Origin: a virus
Lineage: Duplodnaviria; Heunggongvirae; Uroviricota; Caudoviricetes
DNA: 64,000 nucleotides
Virus record (IMG/VR): IMGVR_UViG_3300029509_000119
Span: 63,909-127,908 of that record
Direction: 5' to 3' (one strand)
Of this stretch, positions 2,705 to 53,874 are shown piece after piece (position 1 is the stretch's first letter; every line of letters starts with the position of its first letter). The notes beneath the pieces are model-generated. The model made no database searches and was not told the origin of the DNA. It worked only from the letters and a program-made list of their open reading frames with translations. Both the position numbers and the translations under genes were made by a program.

Positions 2705-3661
2705 CTATACGAACGCGGGCTGATTCAGACGGTCTCGCAGACTCAATTCCAAATATTGTTCGTTTAAATCGACGCCGACATACCTACATCCCAGCATCGC
2801 AGCCGCCAACCCGGTGGTGCCGGAACCGTTGAACGGGTCGAGCGTCACGCCACCCGGCTTACAACCGGCCTGAATGCATGTGAGGGGAATATCCACCGGG
2901 AAAGCCGCAAAATGCGCTCCCGCATACGGGCGGGTCGGCAGCATCCACACGTCGCGTAGGTTTCGTCTGCCGTCCGATGCCACGTATTCCCTACGGTCTC
3001 TTCCCAAATCCTCGCGGACGCCACCATATGCGCTTTTGTTGCCGAACGTATGCCGGTGGGCTAAATCCTCGATGGTTTTCTCCGACTGCCGTTGTCTTAC
3101 GGACTGGTAGTCGTAATAGTATTTTTCGGTTTTGGAGAATAGGAAAATATGCTCGTAGCTTTTGCTTGGACGGTCTTTCACGCTTTCCGGCATGGGGTTC
3201 GTCTTCCCCCAAATGATATCCGAGCGCAATATCCAACCGTCATCCTGCAAGGCGAACGCCACTCTCCACGGGATGCCGAGCAGGTTCTTCGCCGGACGGT
3301 CTGGACGTTTCCTGCCGTTCGGTTTCTGCACATGTCCGTGCAATCCGATGCTGTTCTCCGACCCGTCGCCGCCGTCCCACAGGTTCGGCGTGGAGTACGT
3401 GTCTCCCAAGTTCAGCCAGAATGTGCCGTCATCGGCTAGGATTCGCCTGCATTCGCGGAATACTTTGCTGAGGTCTTCCACATAGTCGCCGGGTGTGGGT
3501 TCGCGTCCGATTTCCAGTTCGGAATCCGTGTATTGGCGCAACCCGTAGTACGGCGGACTGGTGACGATGCAATCGACTGTCCCGTCGGGCAAATCGGAAA
3601 GCACGGACGACGCGTCGCCCAGATAGAGCGTCAGCGTGTCGTCTTGGAACCAAGGCTTCAC
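2705..3661 (-). CDS. DNA methyltransferase, N6-adenine/N4-cytosine beta-class (orphan, no cognate endonuclease seen)
   Basis: Motif IV 'TSPPYYGLRQY' near the N-terminus and motif I 'DPFNGSGTTG' near the C-terminus, the beta-class order. Start overlaps the upstream gene stop (ATGA). Confidence 0.8.
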   Translation of the reverse strand: MKPWFQDDTLTLYLGDASSVLSDLPDGTVDCIVTSPPYYGLRQYTDSELEIGREPTPGDYVEDLSKVFRECRRILADDGTFWLNLGDTYSTPNLWDGGDGSENSIGLHGHVQKPNGRKRPDRPAKNLLGIPWRVAFALQDDGWILRSDIIWGKTNPMPESVKDRPSKSYEHIFLFSKTEKYYYDYQSVRQRQSEKTIEDLAHRHTFGNKSAYGGVREDLGRDRREYVASDGRRNLRDVWMLPTRPYAGAHFAAFPVDIPLTCIQAGCKPGGVTLDPFNGSGTTGLAAAMLGCRYVGVDLNEQYLELSLRDRLNQPAFV

Positions 3662-6339: not shown

Positions 6340-7365
6340 TCAGTTTCCGTCCGCAGCGCACTGTGCGAGGAACGATTTCGTCTCCGCCTTCTCCCACCCG
6401 CTCATGGACAGCTTGTACTTGTCTTTGATGTACACGCGTTTCGCCATGTACGAGCATTGGTACGTCTTGTTGGATGGAAGCCACACGCTTGGAGTGCCGT
6501 CCTGCCATTTGGTTTTGGAGCCGTTCAACGCCTCGTCCCTCACGAGGTTCACGCCCTGCTGTTTGACGTTGTTCGCCTCGCCTTCGGACGCGACGAGCAC
6601 TTCCGGGTCGTTCGCGTAGGCGATGCGGTCGCCTTTGCGTGAGTCCTTCCATAGGCCGCTGGCCCAAGCGTCGTTGACGGCGACCACGTGGTCGATTTGG
6701 ACGGCCATGCTGTCTCCGCCGGTCTTCCTTTGCTTGCCGTTGACGGTCTCGTAGGTGTCGCGTTGGAATCTGATGGTCTTGCCGGTGTACGGGTCTTGCA
6801 GGGTTCCGGTGAGTACCTTGCAGTTCTTGTCCATGGTCACGTCGGACATGTCGCGTTTGAGGATGTAGTCTCTCGTGGTGCCGTAGCCGCATAGTTGGCT
6901 GCTGTTCTGCCATGTGCCGAAGTCTTTTTTGCGGTCGTAGCCTTTGGTGTGAGGGGCGGCGGTTTCGATGTTGGAGAGCCTGTCGAGCGCCTGTTGCGTG
7001 GTGATGGGGCTTAAAGCGCCTTCAGGGACTCCTGTAGAGGCTGTTTGTTCCTGACTTGAGGAATTGTCCCCGTTTGGCGTCTGCGTCGATTCTGAGGGCG
7101 TTTCCGTGGCTTCTGGAGTGTTTGTCCGCGTATTGGGGTCGGACGGTTTCGAGGAAGGCTCCTTCAACCCCAGTTTCACATCAGGTTTGACCTTGGAATC
7201 CTCCCCCGGCATCAACTGGGACAAGTCATTGATTTCCGGCAGTCCGAAAATCTGCGACATGGGCTTCCACAATCCCAAGTTCACGATGAGCACCATGGCC
7301 GTCAACACGACCAGAATGCCGCCAATCAACGAACCGGCGGACATCCCGCCCTTCTTCCTAGCCAT
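6340..7365 (-). CDS. membrane-anchored DUF1524-type (His-Me finger/HNH-like) nuclease-like protein, extracytoplasmic
   Basis: Start at 'MARKKGGMSAGSLIGGILVVLTAMVLIVNLG' (N-terminal TM anchor). Low-complexity S/T/P/E linker. C-terminal 'IDHVVAVNDAWASG ... NNVKQQGVNLVRDEALN' resembles the DUF1524/GmrSD C-terminal His-Me motif. Confidence 0.55.
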   Translation of the reverse strand: MARKKGGMSAGSLIGGILVVLTAMVLIVNLGLWKPMSQIFGLPEINDLSQLMPGEDSKVKPDVKLGLKEPSSKPSDPNTRTNTPEATETPSESTQTPNGDNSSSQEQTASTGVPEGALSPITTQQALDRLSNIETAAPHTKGYDRKKDFGTWQNSSQLCGYGTTRDYILKRDMSDVTMDKNCKVLTGTLQDPYTGKTIRFQRDTYETVNGKQRKTGGDSMAVQIDHVVAVNDAWASGLWKDSRKGDRIAYANDPEVLVASEGEANNVKQQGVNLVRDEALNGSKTKWQDGTPSVWLPSNKTYQCSYMAKRVYIKDKYKLSMSGWEKAETKSFLAQCAADGN

Positions 7366-7391
7366 AAGCAACCTCCAAAAAATGTTCCGCT

Positions 7392-7526
7392 TCACAGGTT
7401 CAGGATGACGCTGATGGCAAGGCACACGATGAACGCTATCGCGATAATCGCGCCGGTCAGCGGGCCGTTGCTGTTGATGAACTCGGCGAACTTGTCGCCC
7501 TCATTGGGCTTGTTGCGTCCTGCCAT
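7392..7526 (-). CDS. small single-pass membrane protein
   Basis: 44-aa C-terminal part of ORF 7392..7730 starting at 'MAGRNKPNEGDKFAEF...IIAIAFIVCLAISVILNL'. The upstream part of the ORF is R/P-rich noise. Confidence 0.35.
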   Translation of the reverse strand: MAGRNKPNEGDKFAEFINSNGPLTGAIIAIAFIVCLAISVILNL

Positions 7527-9539: not shown

Positions 9540-10409
9540 ATGACCTATGATAGCAAAGACCTCGACAAGTCAAACGCATACCGCTACGCTCCATCCGTGA
9601 TGTCGAAGCTGAGCTTCCTGCCACAGTCGAAACCTGACTCGCCATCCGTAAGGAAGACGAACGGGAACTCGTCAATCACCATTTCGGCCTCCAACGGGGA
9701 ATGGGCTTACGGTGCTGCCCCCAGAATGTTCCTCCTCCACATTCGCTCTCTTATCAAGAACGGGAGCGACTGCGTGGACGCGGAACATCACACCGTCTAC
9801 TTGGATAACACGTACAACTCGTTCTGCAATAGCGTCGGAATTAAATACTCCGGGTCAAACAAGGATAAGGTCATAGAGATGGTCAAGAACCTAGCCACCA
9901 CTTCCATCGTCCTCAAAAACTGGTCAGCGGACAGATTCATAGCCCGCTCGTTTTTCGTCGCAAACACCGTGGCGCTCAACTATGGGACTGACGAAAAAGA
10001 GAAGTCGTTCATAGAGTTCTCTCCTCAAATGTGGGCGCTGCTGACCGAGAACTGCGTGCCACTCAACCCGTCCATCGTCCGCCAGCTGCGCGGCGACGCC
10101 CTCTCGTTGGACGTGTACCAGTGGCTCGCGTTTCGCGCCAACTCCACACGCTATGAGACGCACGTAACATGGGAAGCTCTGTTGATGCAGTTCAAGTATG
10201 ACGGGTATCCGATGCGTGAATTCAAACGCAAGTTCAAGAGGGCGTTGGAGAAGATTCGGCTCGCGTGGCCGGAGCTGAAAGTCGAAATCACGGAAACCGG
10301 CGTCATAGTCCGTCCTAGTCTCCCTTCCATCCAGTCGGCTAACGATGATACCGACACGGACACGGGCGTGGCAGATAATGAAGAGCCGATAAACCCGTTC
10401 ATATCCTGA
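9540..10409 (+). CDS. plasmid replication initiator (iteron-binding Rep)
   Basis: ATG at 9540 with an AAGGAAC RBS. 289 aa with an acidic C-terminal tail. Position immediately downstream of the iterons and the AT-rich element. Family assignment (RepA_N-like) is from memory only. Confidence 0.6.
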   Translation: MTYDSKDLDKSNAYRYAPSVMSKLSFLPQSKPDSPSVRKTNGNSSITISASNGEWAYGAAPRMFLLHIRSLIKNGSDCVDAEHHTVYLDNTYNSFCNSVGIKYSGSNKDKVIEMVKNLATTSIVLKNWSADRFIARSFFVANTVALNYGTDEKEKSFIEFSPQMWALLTENCVPLNPSIVRQLRGDALSLDVYQWLAFRANSTRYETHVTWEALLMQFKYDGYPMREFKRKFKRALEKIRLAWPELKVEITETGVIVRPSLPSIQSANDDTDTDTGVADNEEPINPFIS

Positions 10410-11071: not shown

Positions 11072-11734
11072 TTATTCTTCCACCAGATTGATTGCCGTCA
11101 GATAGTCGATAAGTTCATGCACGACGCTGGAATACTCCTTGTTGTCGATTTCGGTCGTGCCGTACATGTTCTTGACGGCCTCACGTTCCGTGATGACGGT
11201 TTCGAATCGTGCGATGCCTTCCTCGTCGAGTTCGCCGATGCTGTTGCGGGCGAGTTTCGTTCGCGGTTTCACACGGGTCAACAGGACGATGCCGTTTCGT
11301 GCCGCCGCATACGTGCGTCCGGCATGGGTCAAATCGGAGATGGACGGCTGGCATGGGATTATCACCACGTCTCCCGCGTTTATCGCCGCCTGTACGACAC
11401 CGGCGTCGGATGGCGGGGTGTCGATGATGACCCAGCCGGAATATTTTTCACGGATGAGTTCGGGATTGTTGAGGATGGCTTCGTTGGTTTGTATGACGGG
11501 GAAACCCAACTCGTATGGTTCCGCGTCCGGATTGTCCTGCCGACGTCTGCGGTTTTCCTGTTCGACATACATTTCCCACATGGTCGCGCCGCCCGTGTTG
11601 TCGGAATCCAAGACCGTGACTTGTTCGCCGCGCTTGTGCAACAGTTCGGCCAATGCCATTGCCGTAGTGGTTTTGCCTGAACCGCCCTTGATGATGGCGA
11701 CGGTGATGATGACCGTATCGTTTTTGATTCTCAT
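11072..11734 (-). CDS. parA: ParA-family partition ATPase
   Basis: ORF 11072..12061 trimmed to 'MRIKNDTVIITVAIIKGGSGKTTTAMALA' (deviant Walker A KGGSGKTT). 221 aa, small Ib-type ParA. Confidence 0.8.
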   Translation of the reverse strand: MRIKNDTVIITVAIIKGGSGKTTTAMALAELLHKRGEQVTVLDSDNTGGATMWEMYVEQENRRRRQDNPDAEPYELGFPVIQTNEAILNNPELIREKYSGWVIIDTPPSDAGVVQAAINAGDVVIIPCQPSISDLTHAGRTYAAARNGIVLLTRVKPRTKLARNSIGELDEEGIARFETVITEREAVKNMYGTTEIDNKEYSSVVHELIDYLTAINLVEE

Positions 11735-11981
11735 GCCTGTGTTCCTTTTTCGGCTTTCGGTGTGGACGAAACCATAGTGGGGGTATGGATTCGTAATCAA
11801 GGATAACAACGTGGAACAGTCGGCACGCCGAACCATAAAACCATTTCCATCAACGTTCCGACAAAACGGCGAACCGGCATACAGGCTGAACGGCGAAACA
11901 ATGATGGTAAAAGGAAGTAGTAATACGGCAGTCTTCCAATCAGAAAAACGGACACGGCATCCAAAAAAACAGCGACGAAAA

Positions 11982-12335
11982 CTACTCAGTCGCCGTGAAC
12001 ACCAACCGGCGCAAAAACTCCATGAACAGCGAGCCGATATCCGGCAATTGAGCCGCGACATCCTTCATCCACTGACGCACCGGCAATCCCATCACCTCCA
12101 GCACGCCGGTGATAATCCACACGAACAGCAGGAACGCGCAGATGGTCAACGCTGTCATCAACGCGCGAGTGCTTTTCTGCAAGATGGCGAATACGACGCT
12201 GCCAGCGCAAATAATAATCATCAACAGTGTGAGGATTGCGCCAGTCGGCGTGAACACCCATGAGAAGAACACGGTGAGCACGTCGCCCAACGTTCGTCCG
12301 GCGGTGTTGGCGGCTTGGTTTCCTACCTCTTCCAT
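11982..12335 (-). CDS. small polytopic membrane protein (conjugation-associated?)
   Basis: 117 aa with three hydrophobic helices. Lies between the VirB6-like gene and par. Confidence 0.5.
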   Translation of the reverse strand: MEEVGNQAANTAGRTLGDVLTVFFSWVFTPTGAILTLLMIIICAGSVVFAILQKSTRALMTALTICAFLLFVWIITGVLEVMGLPVRQWMKDVAAQLPDIGSLFMEFLRRLVFTATE

Positions 12336-17455: not shown

Positions 17456-20116
17456 CTAGTAGTCCTCATCCACGTCGCCATCACGATAGCCGTCGTCGAA
17501 ATCATTCACATGGACAAGGAACGTCGGCTGCAACTGCTCCTGAGTGCGCGTTCGCACAGCCGCCGCATAACGCGGAAGGTTCATGACCGCGCCGGAACGC
17601 CAACCATCCTCGCCATCATTGTTCGTCAGACGTTTCGCCGTCATGTCGGCTATACGGGGAATCGTCGTATTGTATGTGATGAACGTCGAATAGCCGATGA
17701 ACGAATCCAACATCGCGTCGGACAACTGGGTCGGATACTGGGTGGCGAACACGAGAAGAAGGCCGAACGAACGACCCTGCTCACGCAATGCGGGCATGAT
17801 ACCGTCATTGCCGTTAGCCAACAAGCTCAACTCGTCGCATACGAGCATCGTCCACTTGCCAGCCTTGTCCCAATCCTTGCAATGTGCGAACACCGTATTC
17901 CAGAAACGGTACATGAGCCAGCCGCCGAGAATCTTATCCATACGTTCCGGCAACGAATAACCATTATGCGGTGCGAGCACAATGTGATAATCGCCAGCAT
18001 GGTCGAGAATGTTCGTCCAAGTCACCTTGCCACGACGTGCCGTGAACATGTGTTCGATGGGGAGGAACTGGTTCACCTTGTTCAACGAGGCGTTCGTCTT
18101 GGCGAGAATGTCACGGTCGGAACGAACCGTATGACCAGCCGCGTCCGGACGGCCATACAATTGTTCGGCGGCACGGGCGGCATACGTCATCTCATCGAAC
18201 ATGTAGCCGCTTTTCAATTCCATGCTCAACGCGCGGCACACATGCCCCAACGCTTTGGCGGAACCGGCCTGACCGTCGGAACCGCATAATGCGACGACGG
18301 CCCATCCGATTGGACTCAGCTGCATTCGCAACTGTTCCGCACCCGGATAGGATTGTTCGAGCTGATGGCAGCGTTTCACAATCTCGCTTTCCCAATCCTT
18401 GTTCGCGGATTCGGGATTGCGTTTGCGTTCCTCCTGCACGTAACGGTCAACCGCCACGCCGATGGTCAACGCTTGGGTGATGATGTTCTGCGAGTCGTTC
18501 AGAATGTCGCCGTCGTCGAACGAGTAGCGCATGGTCTTGGCAACGCTCGCCGCAGTCTCCATCGCATTGTTCCCGTCCTTCATGCCAAGCATGTCCAAGC
18601 ACACACTGTTCGGGTCGGCCAAATAGACGACGCGCTGCGGACTGGTGAAACCGTGGTGTTTGCGGTAACGTTCCAACACGTTCACTCCCGTATCATCCTT
18701 CATCCAGAAGTGAATGATACGCGAGTCGCGTCCCCAGATTTTCGGACTGGTGGTCTCGCGTGCGCTGATGGCCCACTGGCTGATGCCGTGCGTGAGCACC
18801 GTCTTGCCGGAACCGGCCTCGCCGTTGATTGCGATACCGCCGAACAGTTGCGACGGGTCGAGATAGCAGTCACGTCCGGTATCGTCCTTTCCGAGGAAGA
18901 TGCCATCATGCGACAATACTTCCGGAACCGGATGTAACTCCTGTTTCATCGCCACTCCCTGAGTGACCGGGGTGAACACGGAGCTTACGATAATCGGAGG
19001 AAGAATCAACGTGGTCCTCTGTGCACCGTAAGCGGATACGCGCGACTCCTTCGTTCTGACGCCAAGACGCGTATGGTTGTCGGAATCGTTCGCGCCACGG
19101 TCGTTCGCAATCGCATAATATCTGCGCGGAGTCTGGAAAATATCATCCCACAACGTCCAGTTCCTCCAACGGATGAACGCGAATACGAGAAGAGGGATGA
19201 GAAGAACCGGAACGAACGTGGGGAGAGGAAGCAGCCCCAACAGAAGGTAAAAAGCGAAGGCGACGGACACTCCCGCAATCTGAGGCCGTGGAAGATAGAC
19301 GAACGGAATGCATGACAGCAGCATTAGGAGCAGGAACGCTACCAATGTCACGGCAAGCAGTGGAAGAGCCACGCCGAAACCCCAAGCGGAATGAAACAAC
19401 GGGAACACGCCATCCATCACGTATCCTCTTGCAAGACCGCACACGCTCCAAATCAAAGACAACGCTTCCAACAACATGCCGACGAACAGCAGCCCGAACT
19501 TCGGACGGCTCGTATGACTTGACATGTTGGATATGAGCGGACAGATGGTTTGGCCAATCTTCTGCGCAAGCTGCCGGTTACGGGAAGCCTGTCTACAGCC
19601 GAAACTCACTCGGGCGCACATCGTGTTGGTTGAAGCGAGTTTGCTTGAATCCTCGACGGTATTGTATTCGTCGCTAATCCAATTGCGGACGCGTATCTGT
19701 TCGAAGTATCCCTGATTGCGGAGGGTGACGCTCACGTAACTGTCCGGCGGCATGACCTGCTCGATGCTTGTGCGAATGCCGGAATAGTTCGTCCGCATTT
19801 CTTCCATGTCGTTTTTTCGATTCAACCGGGCACGGAACGGGACGAGAGGATGCGCCGCACTGTTCACACCGTCCGGCAACACCGGCTCATCATCGTCTTC
19901 GACCAGTTTCGCGTCGAATCCAGCCAACTGTCCGGCGTTGATGATTCCCTCGCCGTCGCCGTAAATGTATTCCTTGACCGGCTCCTCGCCTTTCTTGATG
20001 AGGAGCAGTGTGCAACCGTCCAGTTCGGCGGGAATGCTCTCCACTTTCGAACGTTGCTTGTCCGCGTCAAGCTGTTGCAATGTTCTGGTTATCTGATACC
20101 AGTTCTGGCCGCTCAT
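17456..20116 (-). CDS. type IV coupling protein (VirD4/TraG/TcpA-like ATPase)
   Basis: 886 aa. Three to four TM helices around aa 200-330, Walker A 'INGEAGSGKT', Walker B 'MLVCDELSLL'. Confidence 0.7.
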   Translation of the reverse strand: MSGQNWYQITRTLQQLDADKQRSKVESIPAELDGCTLLLIKKGEEPVKEYIYGDGEGIINAGQLAGFDAKLVEDDDEPVLPDGVNSAAHPLVPFRARLNRKNDMEEMRTNYSGIRTSIEQVMPPDSYVSVTLRNQGYFEQIRVRNWISDEYNTVEDSSKLASTNTMCARVSFGCRQASRNRQLAQKIGQTICPLISNMSSHTSRPKFGLLFVGMLLEALSLIWSVCGLARGYVMDGVFPLFHSAWGFGVALPLLAVTLVAFLLLMLLSCIPFVYLPRPQIAGVSVAFAFYLLLGLLPLPTFVPVLLIPLLVFAFIRWRNWTLWDDIFQTPRRYYAIANDRGANDSDNHTRLGVRTKESRVSAYGAQRTTLILPPIIVSSVFTPVTQGVAMKQELHPVPEVLSHDGIFLGKDDTGRDCYLDPSQLFGGIAINGEAGSGKTVLTHGISQWAISARETTSPKIWGRDSRIIHFWMKDDTGVNVLERYRKHHGFTSPQRVVYLADPNSVCLDMLGMKDGNNAMETAASVAKTMRYSFDDGDILNDSQNIITQALTIGVAVDRYVQEERKRNPESANKDWESEIVKRCHQLEQSYPGAEQLRMQLSPIGWAVVALCGSDGQAGSAKALGHVCRALSMELKSGYMFDEMTYAARAAEQLYGRPDAAGHTVRSDRDILAKTNASLNKVNQFLPIEHMFTARRGKVTWTNILDHAGDYHIVLAPHNGYSLPERMDKILGGWLMYRFWNTVFAHCKDWDKAGKWTMLVCDELSLLANGNDGIMPALREQGRSFGLLLVFATQYPTQLSDAMLDSFIGYSTFITYNTTIPRIADMTAKRLTNNDGEDGWRSGAVMNLPRYAAAVRTRTQEQLQPTFLVHVNDFDDGYRDGDVDEDY

Positions 20117-20133: not shown

Positions 20134-20574
20134 TTAGTCGTCTGTGCTTTGCTGATATAACGGCGCATATGGGAAGCCTTCCGGCTTTTGGAAAGTGGAA
20201 AGCCTCTCACGTAACGACAATTGGAGAAGCCACGTCGTCATCCGGACGGTTTTCTCCTTCGACTCCAACGCCCAGCCCAAAGTCACGTAACCGTCGTTCA
20301 CACTCGAACCATCGTTGATGGTCTCACGCATGATGCGGATGGTTTTGTTCGCAACCCGTCTGGAAGTGTTGAACATTATCGAGTCCAATTGCCAGAGTCG
20401 TATTTTCCGTAATGCGGGAACACGTTGCATGTTCGCCATCAGAAACGGAATGACCAAATGCCTGCGTCCCGTCTCGCATAATGTCTGAACCTGTTGCAAT
20501 GCTCGCGCCCGTTCCAGTCTCGCCGTATCCAACGCTTCTTGTGTCTGTTGAAATGATTCCTCAGTGGAGGCCAT
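20134..20574 (-). CDS. hypothetical protein
   Basis: ORF 20134..20610 with the start moved to 'MASTEES...'. Sits in an operon between the ATPase genes. Confidence 0.45.
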   Translation of the reverse strand: MASTEESFQQTQEALDTARLERARALQQVQTLCETGRRHLVIPFLMANMQRVPALRKIRLWQLDSIMFNTSRRVANKTIRIMRETINDGSSVNDGYVTLGWALESKEKTVRMTTWLLQLSLRERLSTFQKPEGFPYAPLYQQSTDD

Positions 20575-21757
20575 CACAATCCTTTCCGATGAAACCGTAG
20601 AAGCCGCCACGGTATGCTTCCGGCATCGTCCAACCGGAAACGTCCCAACCCCAATCCTTTTTTATGATGTCCCGTGTCACGTCCCAACCCCATTCGCTGA
20701 CTTTGCGAACGTCACGGACATGCGGAGTGTATTGCGTCCACTCGTCGGAGAAAATGTTGCGCCGGATTCCGCTCATGTCCGTATATTCACCGAACCTGTC
20801 GGTCGGAATTCCATGTTCGAACCATTCATCCCAAACCGCGACTCCCATTCGTTGCGACACGGTCGGATTGCCCACGACCATTTCCGTCATGCCTTGCGTG
20901 CGTTGTATCACCGCGTTGAACGATTCGTAACCTTCGTTCGCTTTGGGTATCTGCAACCATACGCAGACGAGGCCGCGACGTTTCATTGGAGAGTAGGCGA
21001 GCATCTTCGCCCAGTTCTGCATCTTTCTGTCCAGTTCGCTGTTCGACGTTTGTATTTCGATACCGGCAAGCACGTTGTTGCGGCACAGTGTGACCACGTC
21101 GGTTGCGCACGCCTTGCCGACTTTCGACTCGGCAACCGCCTGCGGGTCAACGCTACGGAATTTTCCCCAACCGTCGCCGGAAGAAAACCTGACGCGGGAG
21201 TCGCGTGCCAACATCAATCCCGCGTGCGCAGCATAAGTGTTATGCCGAACATGGAAACGATTCCCCGCGTAATAGGAAACCGCCATCGTCTCACGCATCC
21301 ACTTTTCCATCCCGTACAATTTCATCGCACGGTTGATAAGACGTGGACTGTTCGACGGTGAAAGCCAAACATGATTCACGGTCTGACCGTACAATCGTTC
21401 CGCCTGACTGAAACCGACGTTGATGATTCCCAAACGGTTCATCGCACCATACAGGTTCGGTTCGTCACGCTCGAAAGCGGGAGCGCCTTTGATGGAAAGT
21501 CCCGCACGCAGTTGGTCAACCGTGCATGTCTTCCAAGTGAACAATGCTCCGAGGATACTCGAAACGAGTTCGCTGTTCGCTTTCACCATTGTCTCCGCGA
21601 ACAGTTTGTTCGCAACGAACCACGGGTGGGTCTGCGCGAACAATCCGGGATGCTCCATCTCGAACATGTCGTTGCCTTTATACCAGTCGGCAATGCTTCC
21701 GGTCTTCCAAAGATTCTCGTCGTTCGGGTCGAAAAGAAAACGGTCATCGAATGTCAC
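20561..21757 (-). CDS. hypothetical protein (398 aa)
   Basis: Normal composition. No 3-His relaxase motif or P-loop recognised. Translationally coupled to the upstream ParA-like gene (ATGA overlap at 21754..21757). Confidence 0.5.
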   Translation of the reverse strand: MTFDDRFLFDPNDENLWKTGSIADWYKGNDMFEMEHPGLFAQTHPWFVANKLFAETMVKANSELVSSILGALFTWKTCTVDQLRAGLSIKGAPAFERDEPNLYGAMNRLGIINVGFSQAERLYGQTVNHVWLSPSNSPRLINRAMKLYGMEKWMRETMAVSYYAGNRFHVRHNTYAAHAGLMLARDSRVRFSSGDGWGKFRSVDPQAVAESKVGKACATDVVTLCRNNVLAGIEIQTSNSELDRKMQNWAKMLAYSPMKRRGLVCVWLQIPKANEGYESFNAVIQRTQGMTEMVVGNPTVSQRMGVAVWDEWFEHGIPTDRFGEYTDMSGIRRNIFSDEWTQYTPHVRDVRKVSEWGWDVTRDIIKKDWGWDVSGWTMPEAYRGGFYGFIGKDCDGLH

Positions 21758-22968
21758 TTACGCCCACGACCTTTCTTTCCTTCACTGTTCTTAGCGTTCG
21801 GATTGAATCTTCCCGGATTGAAACCACGGTCGGGCAAAGCCCAGTTAAGAATGTTCTCCCTAGCAAAAGCAAGACCGGGGTCATCCCATCTGACATCACC
21901 GTTGGCGATATGGTTGCTTGCCTCGACCGTCTGATATTCGGTTCCGAGAAACGTTCCGTATCTCGTATAGTCGAGTCGCCTGTAACCTTGCAATCCGACC
22001 GGAACAGTGTCCTTGATGCCGATGAGTTCCTTCGGAAGATGATGTTCCGCCAATGCCGTCAGCAGATTCAACGCGTCTATCTGCGTCTGCCTTCCAGCCT
22101 TGACGATAACCAGACAAGGGTCTCCCGATTGAATGTATGGAAGCAGTAAACCGTTGGCGATATTCTCCCTATCATCCAAATCGTCCGCGCTGATTCGGTC
22201 AAGGTCGAGCACGACGAAATCCCACAGTCGGCGTGCCGCTTGGATGTACTGACGGTATATCTGCCAGTCCACTCCGATACCGGCTGGAGGTGCGAAACAG
22301 ATATCGTATGGAACCCCAAGGTCACGTCCTCGATTGGCTCCAACCTGCACCTGCATGCCCGGTCGCCAGTCGGCTATCGTATGCAATGGCTTGTCCTGTC
22401 TCGGGTCAAAAAAACTACGTTGGCTGGACTGCCGGATGTTCCCGTCGATGAGTAGAACACGCAATCCGACTTGCGACGCACGGTCTGCCAACTGTCGGCT
22501 GGACGTGGTCTTCCCCACTCCTCCGGTGTTGGATGTGATGGGTAGGAGAACCGCAGTCTCCTTCACTTTGTTTTGGAGGATATCGACTACGAGACGCTTG
22601 TCCGCAAGCTGGATTCCCCAATAAGTCCGTGCGAAATCAGCCACGCTCATGCGTAACATCTGTTCGCTCATGCCCATGGCTCCGACCGGTATCTGACCGG
22701 TGTTGCACCAGTAGACCATGTATCCGGCGTTGGCTATCGGAAGCCAGTTTCCAGCCCTGTCGGTGAAGATGATTCCTTTGAACCCGGAGGGCACCGGATG
22801 TCTTACCAGATAGTCGGCCTGTGCTTGAATATTGTCTGCGGCGGGCACCTGCCAACGCATGTTTCCGGCTCTCGTAAGGGCCTTTTTGATGGTTGTGAGA
22901 AGCCCTCCGGAGCCGATTATCAGGGAAATCGTTCGTTTTTCCAATAAGACCGCCTCCTGATGGGTCAT
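21754..22968 (-). CDS. ParA/MinD-superfamily ATPase with N-terminal extension (CpaE/TadZ-like)
   Basis: 'ITSNTGGVGKTTSSRQLA' is a deviant Walker A in the C-terminal half. ~150-aa N-terminal domain. First gene of the minus-strand operon. Confidence 0.6.
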   Translation of the reverse strand: MTHQEAVLLEKRTISLIIGSGGLLTTIKKALTRAGNMRWQVPAADNIQAQADYLVRHPVPSGFKGIIFTDRAGNWLPIANAGYMVYWCNTGQIPVGAMGMSEQMLRMSVADFARTYWGIQLADKRLVVDILQNKVKETAVLLPITSNTGGVGKTTSSRQLADRASQVGLRVLLIDGNIRQSSQRSFFDPRQDKPLHTIADWRPGMQVQVGANRGRDLGVPYDICFAPPAGIGVDWQIYRQYIQAARRLWDFVVLDLDRISADDLDDRENIANGLLLPYIQSGDPCLVIVKAGRQTQIDALNLLTALAEHHLPKELIGIKDTVPVGLQGYRRLDYTRYGTFLGTEYQTVEASNHIANGDVRWDDPGLAFARENILNWALPDRGFNPGRFNPNAKNSEGKKGRGRK

Positions 22969-23029
22969 GTTCCGTTGTTTTCATCGGAACGTTTACGGTT
23001 TTGTCCGAGTTCTGGCATTTATAGTTTTT

Positions 23030-23640
23030 GATATTTAGTTTTTTGTTGGTTCTGCTGTTGCTTTTTCATTGCATTGGCTGTTCCTGTATTGATGTTACCT
23101 TGTTTTGATTGTTGTTGACCCTGTTGGTGTGACTATTGACCTTTTTGTTGTCTGGCTGACCGTGTGGGGTGTTGTAGTGATTGTGATGTGGTTGCTGTCG
23201 TACCGGTTCTTTCTTCTTTGGGTTTGACACTGTCTTATGTGGTGCGGCTTCTGCTGTTTGCGTGTTTCTGCTGTCGCGTTTTTTGTAGTCTGTTCTTCTA
23301 TTTTTCTCTGTGTGGGCTTTTGTCTGTTGCGTCCTGTTGTCTTATGGTGGCTGGTTGCTCTGCGTTTGGTTCTTTAGTTACGTTGTGACCTGATTTACGG
23401 CATGGATTATTCTTCTTGTTCTGTCGTTGTTCTCTATTTTCGGTTCTTTCGTACTGGTGTTCTTTCTTGATTGTGTTGCTGTGTCTTCTTTTCTTCTGAT
23501 GTGGTCTCTTCTTTCTGTCTGGTTTTATTCTTTTGTTTCTTCTTTTTCTTGGTTCTTCTTTTTGATGGCATAGGGTTCTTGGATTTTTGTTTTTTGGAGT
23601 GGTTTCTTCTCTCTTTTTTTGAAGTCCGCTGTTCATGCTG
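23030..23640. other. ~600-bp pyrimidine-rich, A-depleted tract on the + strand (T about 55%, A about 3-8%, by hand count)
   Basis: Hand counts of two 60-nt lines gave T 32-35, A 2-5, C 10-12, G 11-13. Low-complexity TTC/TTG-type runs. Lies in the 940-bp divergent intergenic region between CDS 21754..22968 (-) and 23911..24594 (+). Confidence 0.6.
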
Positions 23641-23910
23641 GCCACCGGCGCGGCGGACGGCTTTGGCCTGTTCTTCTTCAGGTGACGCTCTAATCGTCGT
23701 TCCTGTTTTCCTTTCCCGTCATTGGACTCTTTTTTCTTGGTTACGTTTTTCGGATGGAACCTACCGGCTCGGGCGGGAGGGCTGTTTCCTGTTTTCTCTG
23801 TTTTGGAATGGCGGAATCAGTTACACTCGTAAATTGAAAATACAGAACACCTCGTTCTGACTGCTAACAGCCTGTCTGACCGGAGTGTTCGCTGGCTGAC
23901 GAAAGAAGGT

Positions 23911-24594
23911 ATGATGCCAGACTTCACCAATTGGGGTTTCAACAACAACCAACAGTCGGAGCAGGACAACGGTTATGGTTCCGGCAATTATTTCGAACCG
24001 GAACAGCCTGAGTCCGGGCTTGTTCAGGACGGCGTGGATTCCGCCGCTGAGACTCCGACTCCAGCCGACGATGAGTCTGTTGGCACGACTGACGAGCCGA
24101 CCGAAACGGGAGACAAGCCGAAAGGCAAATCCAAGGTTCGTGCAAACCGTAAGCCTCGTGAAAAAACCATGCCGCATATCGAGGAACAGTTCGGAAAGAA
24201 ACTCATTCCTCTCATCAAATCGTTGGATGATGAACGTGTGATTGCTCTCGCCAAGGCGTTGACCGACACGAAGAAAAGCACTCCGGAAGCCGTGTTGGAT
24301 GCGTTGACCGAGCCGAAGAACCAACGTCGAATCTCTGATTTCACGTCCGCCTTAGAGGGTTTGACCACCGCCGAGCCGGGCATGATTGCAGCGGAGGTGA
24401 CGCTTGTGTTCGCACAGGGCAAGGATATGACGAACCTGCTGTTCTCCGTGTTGAACGCGGTCGCTCCGGAGAAGAATTTCGGACGTCCGGTTGACGACCA
24501 GTCTCCTATCGGAATGCGTAAGAACCTGAGCAAGATTGTCGATAACTGGGGTGACGGAGTTGACCTTTCCGTCATTGACGAGCTGAAAATCTAA
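23911..24594 (+). CDS. hypothetical protein with acidic low-complexity N-terminus
   Basis: ATG at 23911 with a GAAAGAAGG RBS. 227 aa. The antisense ORF 23821..24324 is G/V/R-rich. Confidence 0.5.
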   Translation: MMPDFTNWGFNNNQQSEQDNGYGSGNYFEPEQPESGLVQDGVDSAAETPTPADDESVGTTDEPTETGDKPKGKSKVRANRKPREKTMPHIEEQFGKKLIPLIKSLDDERVIALAKALTDTKKSTPEAVLDALTEPKNQRRISDFTSALEGLTTAEPGMIAAEVTLVFAQGKDMTNLLFSVLNAVAPEKNFGRPVDDQSPIGMRKNLSKIVDNWGDGVDLSVIDELKI

Positions 24595-52909: not shown

Positions 52910-53169
52910 ATCTTGCACCATGCCCGTTCTGCGACGGCACCGTGCATCTCGTGTTCGACCGCGATTTCCGGCGCGGCGTCCGCTATGGAATCGTCCACGA
53001 ACGGCCTTGCTCGCTTTTGCCGACCTTATGGGCGGCGTACGGGGTTGAATCCGATACGCTCGCCCGCTGTTGGAACCAACGGTATGGGGTGGCGAACCGG
53101 CTGCGAGCATTGGGTGAGGATGGGCTGGCTGACAAGCTGGCTTACGAGGGGGTTGGTTTACCTTCGTGA
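52906..53169 (+). CDS. Lar-family restriction-alleviation protein-like
   Basis: GTG start overlapping the upstream stop. 'LAPCPFCDGTVHL ... ARCWNQRYG' resembles the Lar N-terminal zinc-ribbon signature (CPFCG). Confidence 0.5.
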   Translation: MNLAPCPFCDGTVHLVFDRDFRRGVRYGIVHERPCSLLPTLWAAYGVESDTLARCWNQRYGVANRLRALGEDGLADKLAYEGVGLPS

Positions 53170-53176
53170 CCGAATG

Positions 53177-53204
53177 TGTTATACTGGGGGTGTTCACATA
53201 AAAA
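53177..53204 (+). promoter_or_regulatory. copy of conserved promoter/leader motif
   Basis: gTGTTATACTGGGGGTGTTCACATAAAA. Confidence 0.5.
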
Positions 53205-53247
53205 CCAGTCAGAAAAGAGACCACCATCCCGATTTGGAGCAGCAACA

Positions 53248-53874
53248 ATGCATAGCCTATACAAGACCGCAGGTAAATGCACTCTCAATCGAAACAAAGT
53301 GCGTTACCCCAACCAAAAGGAAGCCCAACTCGCCTTGGCTGTCATCAAAGGACGAGGCAATCCGAAACACACGGAGAAACGCGCATACCATTGCCCCGTC
53401 TGCCACGGATGGCATCTGACCAGCGCCGAAACCGTGAACGACACCATCCTGTCCGGAAGCGTACTCCAGCATACAAATCCAAACGCGTTCAACACCGGCA
53501 TGGAAGCGTTCAAATCCGGTTCCAGACAAGGCAGATACTCCATCAGCAAGGCAAGCCTGACCCGGCGTGTGCGACACCTGCTCCACCTGTTCGCAGCCAA
53601 CGACATTCCGGAGGATTCGTGGGACAACCCATGGTTGTGGGCCACCCTCCGATTCCAAATCATGTGGCATGGCGGCGATGAAAAAGCGGAACAACTGCTG
53701 TCCACTTCGAAAAAGACCGTCAAAATCGCGGGAGACATGCTCGCAGAAGACAAGACGCCGTTCCTTCGCGTGGCTGAAAACCGGAAGGAAGCAAGACGAT
53801 TGCATGATACGCCACTGCCCGCATGGTTGGCCGTGGCATTATTGGCGGATAAAGGAAAGGAACAGGAAAGGTGA
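53248..53874 (+). CDS. hypothetical protein with 'YHCPVCHGWHLTS' zinc-ribbon-like motif
   Basis: ORF 53176..53874 started at 'MHSLYKT...'. 208 aa. Confidence 0.5.
   Translation: MHSLYKTAGKCTLNRNKVRYPNQKEAQLALAVIKGRGNPKHTEKRAYHCPVCHGWHLTSAETVNDTILSGSVLQHTNPNAFNTGMEAFKSGSRQGRYSISKASLTRRVRHLLHLFAANDIPEDSWDNPWLWATLRFQIMWHGGDEKAEQLLSTSKKTVKIAGDMLAEDKTPFLRVAENRKEARRLHDTPLPAWLAVALLADKGKEQER

Follow-up and report, generated by a model that had tools for sequence, protein, structure and literature searches.

The 64,000-nt stretch of IMG/VR record IMGVR_UViG_3300029509_000119 analyzed here (the window; all positions refer to it, and the + strand is the strand as given) carries, between two divergent genes, a long tract whose + strand is rich in T and nearly free of A. 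This tract is a single-copy, non-coding, strand-polar cis element, which is accompanied by a conserved GC box and linked across Actinobacteria to an operon encoding a nuclease and a coupling protein. We tentatively read it as the operon-proximal arm of a polar cis element, perhaps the transfer-origin (oriT) region, and give this reading a probability of roughly 40%. An oriT-associated site was one of several roles proposed in a first-pass annotation of the sequence; it is not proven, and it stays the best-supported proposal because an 886-aa ATPase of the operon is homologous to a coupling protein and a second operon product has a restriction-endonuclease fold of the kind found in MOBC relaxases.

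The extreme strand asymmetry noted in the first-pass annotation was real. Positions 23030-23640 contained 7.4% A, 16.2% C, 24.7% G, and 51.7% T on the + strand; the A content of 3-8% given earlier was accurate in that A made up about 7% of this range and 3-4% of some 100-nt bins, and not 3% overall. The AT skew ranged from -0.65 to -0.80 over approximately 23000-23800 (200-nt windows), and the full tract extended from about 22990 to 23800, longer than the 600 bp originally described, with a core at 23039-23620. The GC content fell to 36-46% in the tract compared with 54.7% for the whole window, for which a background of about 60% had been assumed. Across the 64 kb, the AT skew of 600-nt windows averaged 0.02 (standard deviation 0.20), and the next most negative value, with the tract and its edges excluded, was -0.47. 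A maximal-segment scan returned one such tract only, the core, and likewise a single tract in the 190-kb plasmid pMP7017, at 53.0-53.2 kb. The tract thus stood alone in the window and was present once per replicon, as is expected of an oriT.

The window was related to the conjugative megaplasmids pMP7017 of Bifidobacterium breve and p1 of Bifidobacterium longum, with which it shared gene order and a ParA-like protein of 58-59% identity, and both megaplasmids carried the skewed tract. A first scan of genome contigs with an alignment of the ParA-like protein yielded no confirmed locus. A metagenome scan with the ParA-like protein recovered 75 human-gut loci, for 57 of which the upstream DNA extended to about 840 nt or more (loci from the scans are designated L001, L009, L019, and so on). 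In all 57, a T-rich, A-poor tract of 148-733 nt (A 3-8%, T 49-57%) occupied the equivalent place. A spacer of ordinary composition in related plasmids had been named in advance as the observation that would argue against a special element; the opposite was found, since the skew was kept in every relative with enough upstream DNA.

The sequence of the tract was far less constant than its composition. Compared with L019, the ParA-proximal 184 nt of the intergenic region (IGR) were 94.6% identical and the distal 155 nt were 84% identical, and the centre was unalignable. The centre matched those of L003 and L007 at about 72% identity at most, in a gapped alignment. This divergence occurred despite ParA proteins that were 94-99% identical in L019, L003, and L007, and no similarity of the IGR was detectable in comparisons with clades at 57% ParA identity. 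Among 13 close relatives, variable columns per site amounted to 0.173 in the tract, compared with 0.044 in the ParA-like gene, 0.048-0.060 at the ends of the IGR, and 0.045 in the downstream gene, and 36% of the tract columns bore gaps. When changes were polarized by the minor allele, 56 eroded the skew and 35 raised it, indicating that point-mutation bias was not the maker of the skew; it must therefore be kept either by selection on composition or by slippage and duplication turnover of A-free motifs. A mutation bias of the deamination type was also rejected as its source, since G did not rise as A fell and the polarized changes eroded the skew. In relatives at 45-52% ParA identity (L056, L082, L084, and L085), a short tract of about 60-190 nt lay beside a GC box, with ordinary composition on the ParA side of the gap; L083 had a 32-nt tract left, without a clear GC box. 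The short tracts beside the box suggest that the core element is the tract plus the GC box, apparently expanded in the clade of the window. Only composition, internal order, and the GC box were kept, and sequence and length turned over rapidly.

The association extended well beyond Bifidobacterium. A scan with the operon nuclease, using one genome per species, identified 26 actinobacterial loci (Arthrobacter, Pseudarthrobacter, Curtobacterium, Tersicoccus, Nakamurella, and others), for which 7 kb of upstream DNA was examined per locus, except for L096 and L098 (441 nt for L098). A non-coding tract of 375-950 nt with 5-8% A lay upstream of the operon in 13 of the 26. In six of these 13, a second, T-poor arm of opposite polarity (300-525 nt, T 6-9%) came 25-375 nt further on and abutted the coupling-protein gene. 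The period-3 signal of the arms was 0.4-2.6, compared with 6.7-19 in the nuclease gene. In the Arthrobacter-group loci L087, L089, L091, and L093, which are related and are thus not independent counts, the box CCTGCGGCGGGCGG occurred 13 times on the + strand and once on the - strand in the A-poor arm, and 13 times on the - strand and never on the + strand in the T-poor arm. These arrays held two to four copies per arm in opposed orientation, with few copies elsewhere in the four loci. The Bifidobacterium GC box (CCGGCGCGGGCGG) was nearly identical to CCTGCGGCGGGCGG, and its orientation was that of the operon-proximal arm, in which the sense strand is depleted of T. From the sequence of the GC box and its orientation relative to the operon, the tract of the window would be the counterpart of this operon-proximal arm. 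A sense strand depleted of T just upstream of the transfer operon was found in hosts of 53-72% GC.

Two-arm elements were seen upstream of the coupling-protein gene in L087 (1001-2300) and L089 (2901-4300), as well as in L090, L091, L093, L108, and L113. L089 also contained small hairpin motifs, GGGGCTTCGCCCC in one arm and its complement in the other. In L114, from a Mobiluncus metagenome-assembled genome, nearly the whole matched strand from -4100 to +1250 relative to the nuclease match was A-poor (A 7-10%), including the tblastn match itself; this is odd for coding DNA and may reflect mis-assembly or a very different arrangement.

The rapid turnover raises the question of whether the tract is functionless filler, that is, a low-complexity spacer enlarged through slippage and through the local duplication of T-rich motifs, with selection acting on its ends and the GC box only. 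Consistent with this, there were many insertions and deletions, including changes in T-run length, among near-identical plasmids, some members had local tandem repeats (of 27-32 nt in L002 and as runs of the TTTTCG type in L084), and tract lengths ranged from about 30 to 730 nt. In contrast, polarity, internal order, and the depletion of A were kept across unalignable clades and in hosts of 53-72% GC, the skew persisted even though point changes tended to erode it, and no other non-coding region of the 190-kb plasmid had drifted likewise. We therefore consider filler an improbable explanation.

A protein-coding origin of the bias was close to refuted. The tract could in principle encode a lysine-rich disordered protein on the - strand, as the first-pass annotation had suggested for the 115-aa open reading frame (ORF) at 23298..23645. 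The + strand, where a 129-aa ORF exists, could encode small hydrophobic peptides, as annotated in pMP7017 (WP_172685975.1); moreover, several clades had a - strand ATG after the GC box. However, within the tract the period-3 power was about 1.1 for each of the four bases, compared with 2.7-20 in the two flanking genes. Stop codons, described at first as almost absent from all six frames, were rare but not absent: every frame contained three to nine, and none was open throughout. Composition alone predicts a stop at about 3.2% of - strand codons and 2.2% of + strand codons, so the lengths of the 115-aa and 129-aa ORFs were unremarkable. The ORFs following the GC box on the - strand measured 115, 31, and 31 aa in three plasmids and differed in frame, their start codon was missing in two other clades (L048 and L056), no Shine-Dalgarno sequence preceded these starts, and there was no Pfam match. 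No ORF was kept among the relatives of the tract. Lacking both three-base periodicity and an ORF common to relatives, the tract was rejected as a biased coding sequence. RefSeq, through PGAP, calls a 91-aa hypothetical protein, WP_172685975.1, in the pMP7017 tract (L001 7305-7580; pMP7017 53034-53309), and L082 carries two overlapping gene calls of this sort; because stop codons are scarce, the 91-aa call is probably spurious.

The operon headed by the tract encodes the candidates for a transfer function. Searches of its proteins against Pfam, NCBIfam, PHROG, and PDB sequences returned almost nothing. The 398-aa product was confidently assigned a PD-(D/E)XK fold, which is the catalytic fold of MOBC relaxases, with invariant RHNT, D, D, E-x-Q, and K positions. 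Pfam, NCBIfam, and PDB sequence searches with it were negative, and its likeness to MOBC is one of fold class; it is a candidate relaxase of the MOBC kind, perhaps of an unrecognized relaxase family. The check for a nearby relaxase proposed in the first-pass annotation produced a candidate in the adjoining operon; MOB-suite recognizes no relaxase in these plasmids. Distant homologues of the nuclease were found on Micrococcales plasmids, beside a gene whose NCBI annotation is type IV coupling protein (T4CP). The 886-aa ATPase itself matched a pACHL01 protein by BLASTP with 26% identity over 485 aa (E 3e-35); that protein is annotated as 'type IV secretory system conjugative DNA transfer family protein' and has a weak TraG-D_C Pfam match. 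Together, the position of the nuclease homologues beside a coupling-protein gene and the homology of the ATPase suggest that the operon is a DNA-transfer (Dtr) module. The earlier designation as a type IV secretion system (T4SS) operon could be upheld only in part, by the coupling-protein homology and the MOBC-like nuclease fold, and it gained no Pfam, NCBIfam, or PDB sequence match. As a cis site beside genes for a relaxase and a coupling protein, an oriT would be expected where the tract lies, next to a PD-(D/E)XK nuclease gene and a T4CP-like ATPase gene, and this linkage recurred in 13 of the 26 distant loci. It was also observed that homologues of the 398-aa protein across Actinobacteria adjoin coupling-protein-like genes on plasmids typed as 'non-mobilizable'.

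The tract sits in a 945-bp gap between the ParA-like gene, which is the first gene of the operon, and a divergent gene for a 227-aa protein (Table 1). The true start of the ParA-like gene is probably a TTG near 22941, after AGGAGG. Starting from this gene, the same order was found in all Bifidobacterium clades: a proximal block, a T+G part, a T-peak T+C part, a motif, a spacer, and the GC box. The proximal block consists of a few conserved A-containing motifs and the inverted repeat TTCCG-N-CGGAA. The stem of this repeat (TTCCG/CGGAA, N10-12) was kept across clades, including L001, L002, and L056, without covariation. Since the stem was kept without compensatory changes, it is more likely to be an operator, for a dimeric regulator, than an RNA hairpin. 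The motifs of the block that were shared across clades were TGATTTAG-N-TTATTGA and CTGTTC-N-TTGAT(A/G)TTAC; the ParA-proximal conserved block is the probable promoter/operator region of the operon, without a match to consensus promoters.

Table 1. Features of the tract, its flanks, and the adjoining genes in the window.
Feature	Position	Strand	Remarks
Skewed tract core	23039..23620	.	+ strand A 7%, T 53%; - strand T-depleted; non-coding; sole maximal T-rich/A-poor segment
Inverted repeat GTTCCG-N11-CGGAAC	22969..22991	.	Directly upstream of ParA-like gene; read from sequence
ParA-proximal conserved block	22992..23150	.	Contains A-bearing motifs TTTATAG and GATATTTAG
T+G-rich half, ParA side	23040..23400	.	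G 28-31%
T-peak, T+C-rich half	23400..23635	.	T up to 61%, pyrimidine 73%, TTCTTC-type words; adjoins GC box
GTCCGCT motif	23624..23630	+	About 15 nt ahead of GC box; relatives have (G)GTTCCGCT or GTCCGCT at equal distance
GC box copy 1 (GGCCACCGGCGCGGCGGACGGC)	23640..23661	+	Core GCGCGG(G)CGG common to all clades
GC box copy 2 (CTACCGGCTCGGGCGGGAGGG)	23761..23781	+	
TAAATT (-10-like) followed by GAAAATACAGAACAC	23830..23859	+	Inverted repeat CAGAAC-N5-GTTCTG at 23843-23859
ParA/MinD/CpaE-like P-loop ATPase, first operon gene	21754..22968	-	Pfam CbiA/AAA_31; weak NCBIfam matches; PHROG ParA-like
398-aa protein, restriction-endonuclease-like (PD-(D/E)XK) fold	20561..21757	-	Possible winged-helix domain
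886-aa P-loop ATPase	17456..20116	-	Homologous to coupling-protein-like gene in Arthrobacter-type plasmids
Conserved 227-aa gene (N-terminus MPDF..W..NN)	23911..24594	+	Always beyond GC box from tract

Within the T+G half, oriented words were found at 23115 and 23136 (TTGACC), 23156 (CTGACC), 23224 (TTGACA), and 23385 (GTGACC), together with GTTGC/CTGTTGC words. In six independent tracts from the window and its relatives, TTGACC was seen 8 times where 0.5 was expected, GTTGCG was seen 10 times where 1.2 was expected, and TTCTTC was also over-represented. In the same six tracts, CpG stood at 0.53 of expectation and TCG at 0.38, and ATC was found once against 12.9 expected, so that GATC was almost absent. 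Ahead of the GC box, the motif GTCCGCT or GGTTCCGCT was followed across the Bifidobacterium clades by a spacer of about 15 nt, and the conserved box closing the tract read CCGGCGCGG(G)CGG. The window has two oriented GC boxes and the relative L009 has one, with the approximately 120 bp between the copies absent, which suggests duplication, deletion, or recombination between the two boxes; the same segment was gone in some plasmids that were 99% identical (L009/L018/L022). As a possible regulon motif, the GC box was not repeated elsewhere on the plasmid beyond chance.

Beyond the GC box, about 60-130 nt carry a probable promoter of the downstream gene, and in the window the TAAATT site and the inverted repeat following it are the probable promoter/operator of the 227-aa gene. 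The 34-bp regulon motif of pMP7017 (TATACTGAATATGTCCACA) was absent from the IGR, with a loose resemblance at 23830 only. The genes on this side of the tract had been taken for cargo; the 227-aa gene instead proved to be a conserved backbone gene. The N-terminal 85 residues of its product are disordered and the C-terminal domain is helical. The sequence encoding the disordered part (23911-24170) is moderately T-poor, with an AT skew of +0.12 to +0.30, and the skew thus changes sign on the way from the GC box to the 227-aa gene, as it does in the two-arm elements of Arthrobacter.

Because the tract lies directly upstream on the sense strand of the operon, in Bifidobacterium as well as in the Arthrobacter-type elements, the main rival is a long 5' leader RNA for the transfer operon that is untranslated, free of structure, and depleted of U, transcribed from the - strand and putatively controlling the operon by Rho-dependent premature termination, antitermination, or RNA stability. 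We judge this unlikely. The - strand as a single strand is essentially without secondary structure: its minimum free energy was -0.06 to 0.0 kcal/mol per nt, compared with -0.31 ± 0.05 across the window, and RNA folding z-scores were not significant for either strand. C exceeded G 1.3-2.1 fold on this strand, and only five start codons were present in 597 nt. The two arms would suit divergent transcription from the centre, both RNAs being U-poor, and there is a precedent in the R6K vir operon, a conjugal transfer operon silenced at elongation by Rho (bioRxiv 10.64898/2026.02.23.707533). However, the distal end showed no sigma-70-like promoter on the - strand, and the conserved motifs of mixed A/T content and the operator-like inverted repeat adjoin the ParA-like gene; if the promoter lies there, as they suggest, the tract would not be transcribed. 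The actinobacterial Rho of Mycobacterium tuberculosis, moreover, prefers U>G RNA over C>G RNA (PMC13650167), and RNA from the tract would be U-poor. The published RNA-seq work on pMP7017 reports nothing at the tract, and the transcriptome and replication papers on this plasmid, together with the transcriptome supplement, contain no mention of the region.

Further searches of the tract were likewise negative. Rfam covariance models gave no match at gathering thresholds or at E <= 1, a tRNA/tmRNA scan found none, and blastn of the tract against plasmids and phages returned no match. A promoter and terminator consensus scan detected nothing within the tract and weak terminator-like sites near GC box 2 only, and no clear -35/-10 pair was seen by hand at either end. 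An R-loop, with purine-rich RNA on a TTC template, was also rejected, since it would suit the distal half in Bifidobacterium only and not the Arthrobacter arms.

Alternatively, the tract might act as duplex DNA, either as a platform on which the ParA-like ATPase, the 227-aa protein, or a silencer of the nucleoid-associated kind binds cooperatively, or as a rigid stretch without promoters that insulates divergent promoters from each other or serves as a supercoil sink between them. It is AT-enriched, with 40-45% GC in a plasmid of 55% GC, it sits between divergent genes without a promoter-like site, its oriented words are over-represented, and TpA steps are depleted (TA 0.74, TTA 0.60, and TTAT 0.39 of expectation). 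We nevertheless regard a duplex role as distinctly improbable: a protein that binds duplex DNA does not need a single polarity maintained through 600 bp, the neighbouring 227-aa protein yielded no DNA-binding fold, and there was neither 10-11-bp (10.5-nt) phasing in the tract nor any period common to the tracts. The maximum power observed was 1.99, compared with 1.94 ± 0.19 in shuffles, and phased A-tract curvature and a centromere-like periodic array were rejected. The triplex-forming (H-DNA) structure proposed initially was not supported either. The longest pure pyrimidine run was 18 nt, a length expected by chance (14.6 ± 3.1 in shuffles), the + strand was just 68% pyrimidine, and the long homopurine-homopyrimidine mirror repeat that such a structure demands was lacking. 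The tract contained one 6-nt palindrome.

AT-rich, strand-asymmetric DNA beside a GC cluster also resembles the unwinding element of a replication origin, and a plasmid dnaB gene lies 6 kb away. A role as a vegetative origin (oriV) unwinding element or GC-cluster module was rejected and is very improbable: the experimentally defined replicon of pMP7017, with its iterons and the GC-skew switch, is at repB, 115-120 kb (PMC8313286), and the syntenic tract of that plasmid is at 53 kb. Neither iterons nor a Rep gene adjoined the tract. The window also encodes a RepA_C replication protein (9540-10409), a canonical ParA (11072-12061), the plasmid DnaB (29950-31290), a DNA methylase (2705-3661), and a GmrSD-like nuclease (6340-7425); the rep and par genes are not adjacent to the tract.

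If the tract is part of an oriT, the nuclease/relaxase or an accessory protein would recognize the GC box and perhaps also the short oriented words, and unwinding would take place in the skewed, AT-enriched tract. The resulting hairpin-free single strand would be handled by the coupling protein, a helicase, single-stranded DNA-binding protein, or the priming machinery. The extreme skew would keep an AT-rich tract free of promoters and ORFs; slippage and duplication would make the variation in length, and selection on composition would hold A off the + strand.

Several points weigh against the oriT reading. For no member is a nick site known, nor relaxase activity or a role in transfer, and the PD-(D/E)XK nuclease fold belongs also to many enzymes that are not relaxases. 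In PLSDB, related Bifidobacterium and Micrococcales plasmids are typed by MOB-suite as 'non-mobilizable', i.e., without a recognized relaxase. Half of the distant loci (13 of 26) showed no tract at the threshold used within the available upstream DNA; L098, with its 441 nt, was among them. Since the tract measures only about 30 nt in some relatives and up to 730 nt in others, most of the 600 bp in the window is not strictly required. The mirror symmetry of two arms is not predicted by one-strand nicking, no periodic repeat array was detectable in the tract, and a long inverted repeat of the kind common at oriT was absent, with short inverted repeats only.

A more specific proposal, which we regard as speculative and unlikely, is a previously undescribed transfer origin or loading site in 'non-mobilizable' actinobacterial plasmids. 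It would consist of two hairpin-free arms of mirror composition, each almost without one base, with GC boxes that converge on the centre, orient a coupling-protein/FtsK-like translocase, and position a relaxase of restriction-endonuclease fold; Bifidobacterium would have kept one greatly expanded arm. Transfer origins, rut (Rho utilization)-like leaders, and polar guide motifs are all known kinds of element. We know of no earlier account of a transfer operon that is headed by arms of 0.4-1.4 kb nearly devoid of one base and bearing GC-box arrays in opposed orientation.

Megaplasmids of the pMP7017 type were present in about 10% of the human gut microbiome samples mined, mostly from infants and/or mothers (PMC10832533). 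They are experimentally conjugative, yet have no recognized relaxase or oriT, and the same holds for many large plasmids of Arthrobacter, Curtobacterium, and related genera that are typed as 'non-mobilizable'. The present analysis offers testable candidates for both components: the tract plus the GC box as the cis site, and the nuclease of restriction-endonuclease fold as the relaxase-like enzyme. If the oriT reading is true, it would improve the prediction of mobility in Actinobacteria, provide a minimal mobilizable cassette for Bifidobacterium genetics, and represent an unusual case of a bacterial cis element in which selection acts on strand composition and not on sequence. If the tract is filler, the conserved GC box and the nuclease would still be useful leads.

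Among known systems, the oriTs of MOBC plasmids (pAD1 TraX and CloDF13 MobC) are the closest in enzyme class. MOBC relaxases belong to the PD-(D/E)XK class and have a winged-helix N-terminal domain, and TraX of pAD1 binds direct repeats 70-120 bp from its nick site (PMC12857230). Here, similarly, a nuclease of that fold class is encoded beside a non-coding region with oriented GC boxes and short words; in contrast, MOB-suite recognizes no relaxase in these plasmids, and the likeness is one of fold class. To our knowledge, arms of 0.4-1.4 kb with near-total loss of one base have not been described for MOBC oriTs. The overdrive sequence of Ti plasmids is a T/G-rich cis enhancer with the core TGTTTGTT beside the nick site, and is bound by the ParA-like ATPase VirC1, which helps relaxosome assembly. 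In the window, a ParA-like gene abuts a T/G-rich tract with TGTTTTGTT-type words, although the resemblance of the words was not significant, overdrive measures 24 bp compared with hundreds of bp here, and the ParA-like protein lacks a VirC1 Pfam match.

Guide motifs of the FtsK type offer another parallel. FtsK orienting polar sequences (KOPS) converge on dif, and TraB recognition repeats lie in the clt locus of Streptomyces plasmids. Such motifs are short, G-rich, and oriented, with a switch of polarity at the target; the Arthrobacter-type GC boxes likewise point to the centre from both sides, and these plasmids encode proteins with FtsK/SpoIIIE domains. KOPS are spread over whole replichores, whereas the putative motifs here are packed in about 1 kb with extreme A/T skew. 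With rut regions and long transfer-operon leaders, the tract shares an unstructured, start-codon-poor sequence with C>G on the operon sense strand; rut regions, however, span about 80-100 nt compared with 600 here, and mycobacterial Rho prefers U>G. Finally, Mihasan and Brandsch reportedly described in 2016 conserved DNA repeats and a syntenic T4SS in pAO1-like Arthrobacter plasmids. As cited in PMC10494377 and PMC6305408, the plasmid group is the same and carries T4SS genes together with conserved repeats that are taken for backbone markers; these repeats, which may overlap with the GC-box arrays reported here, are placed 5' of DUF4192, DprA, and ParB genes, not of a coupling-protein/nuclease operon.

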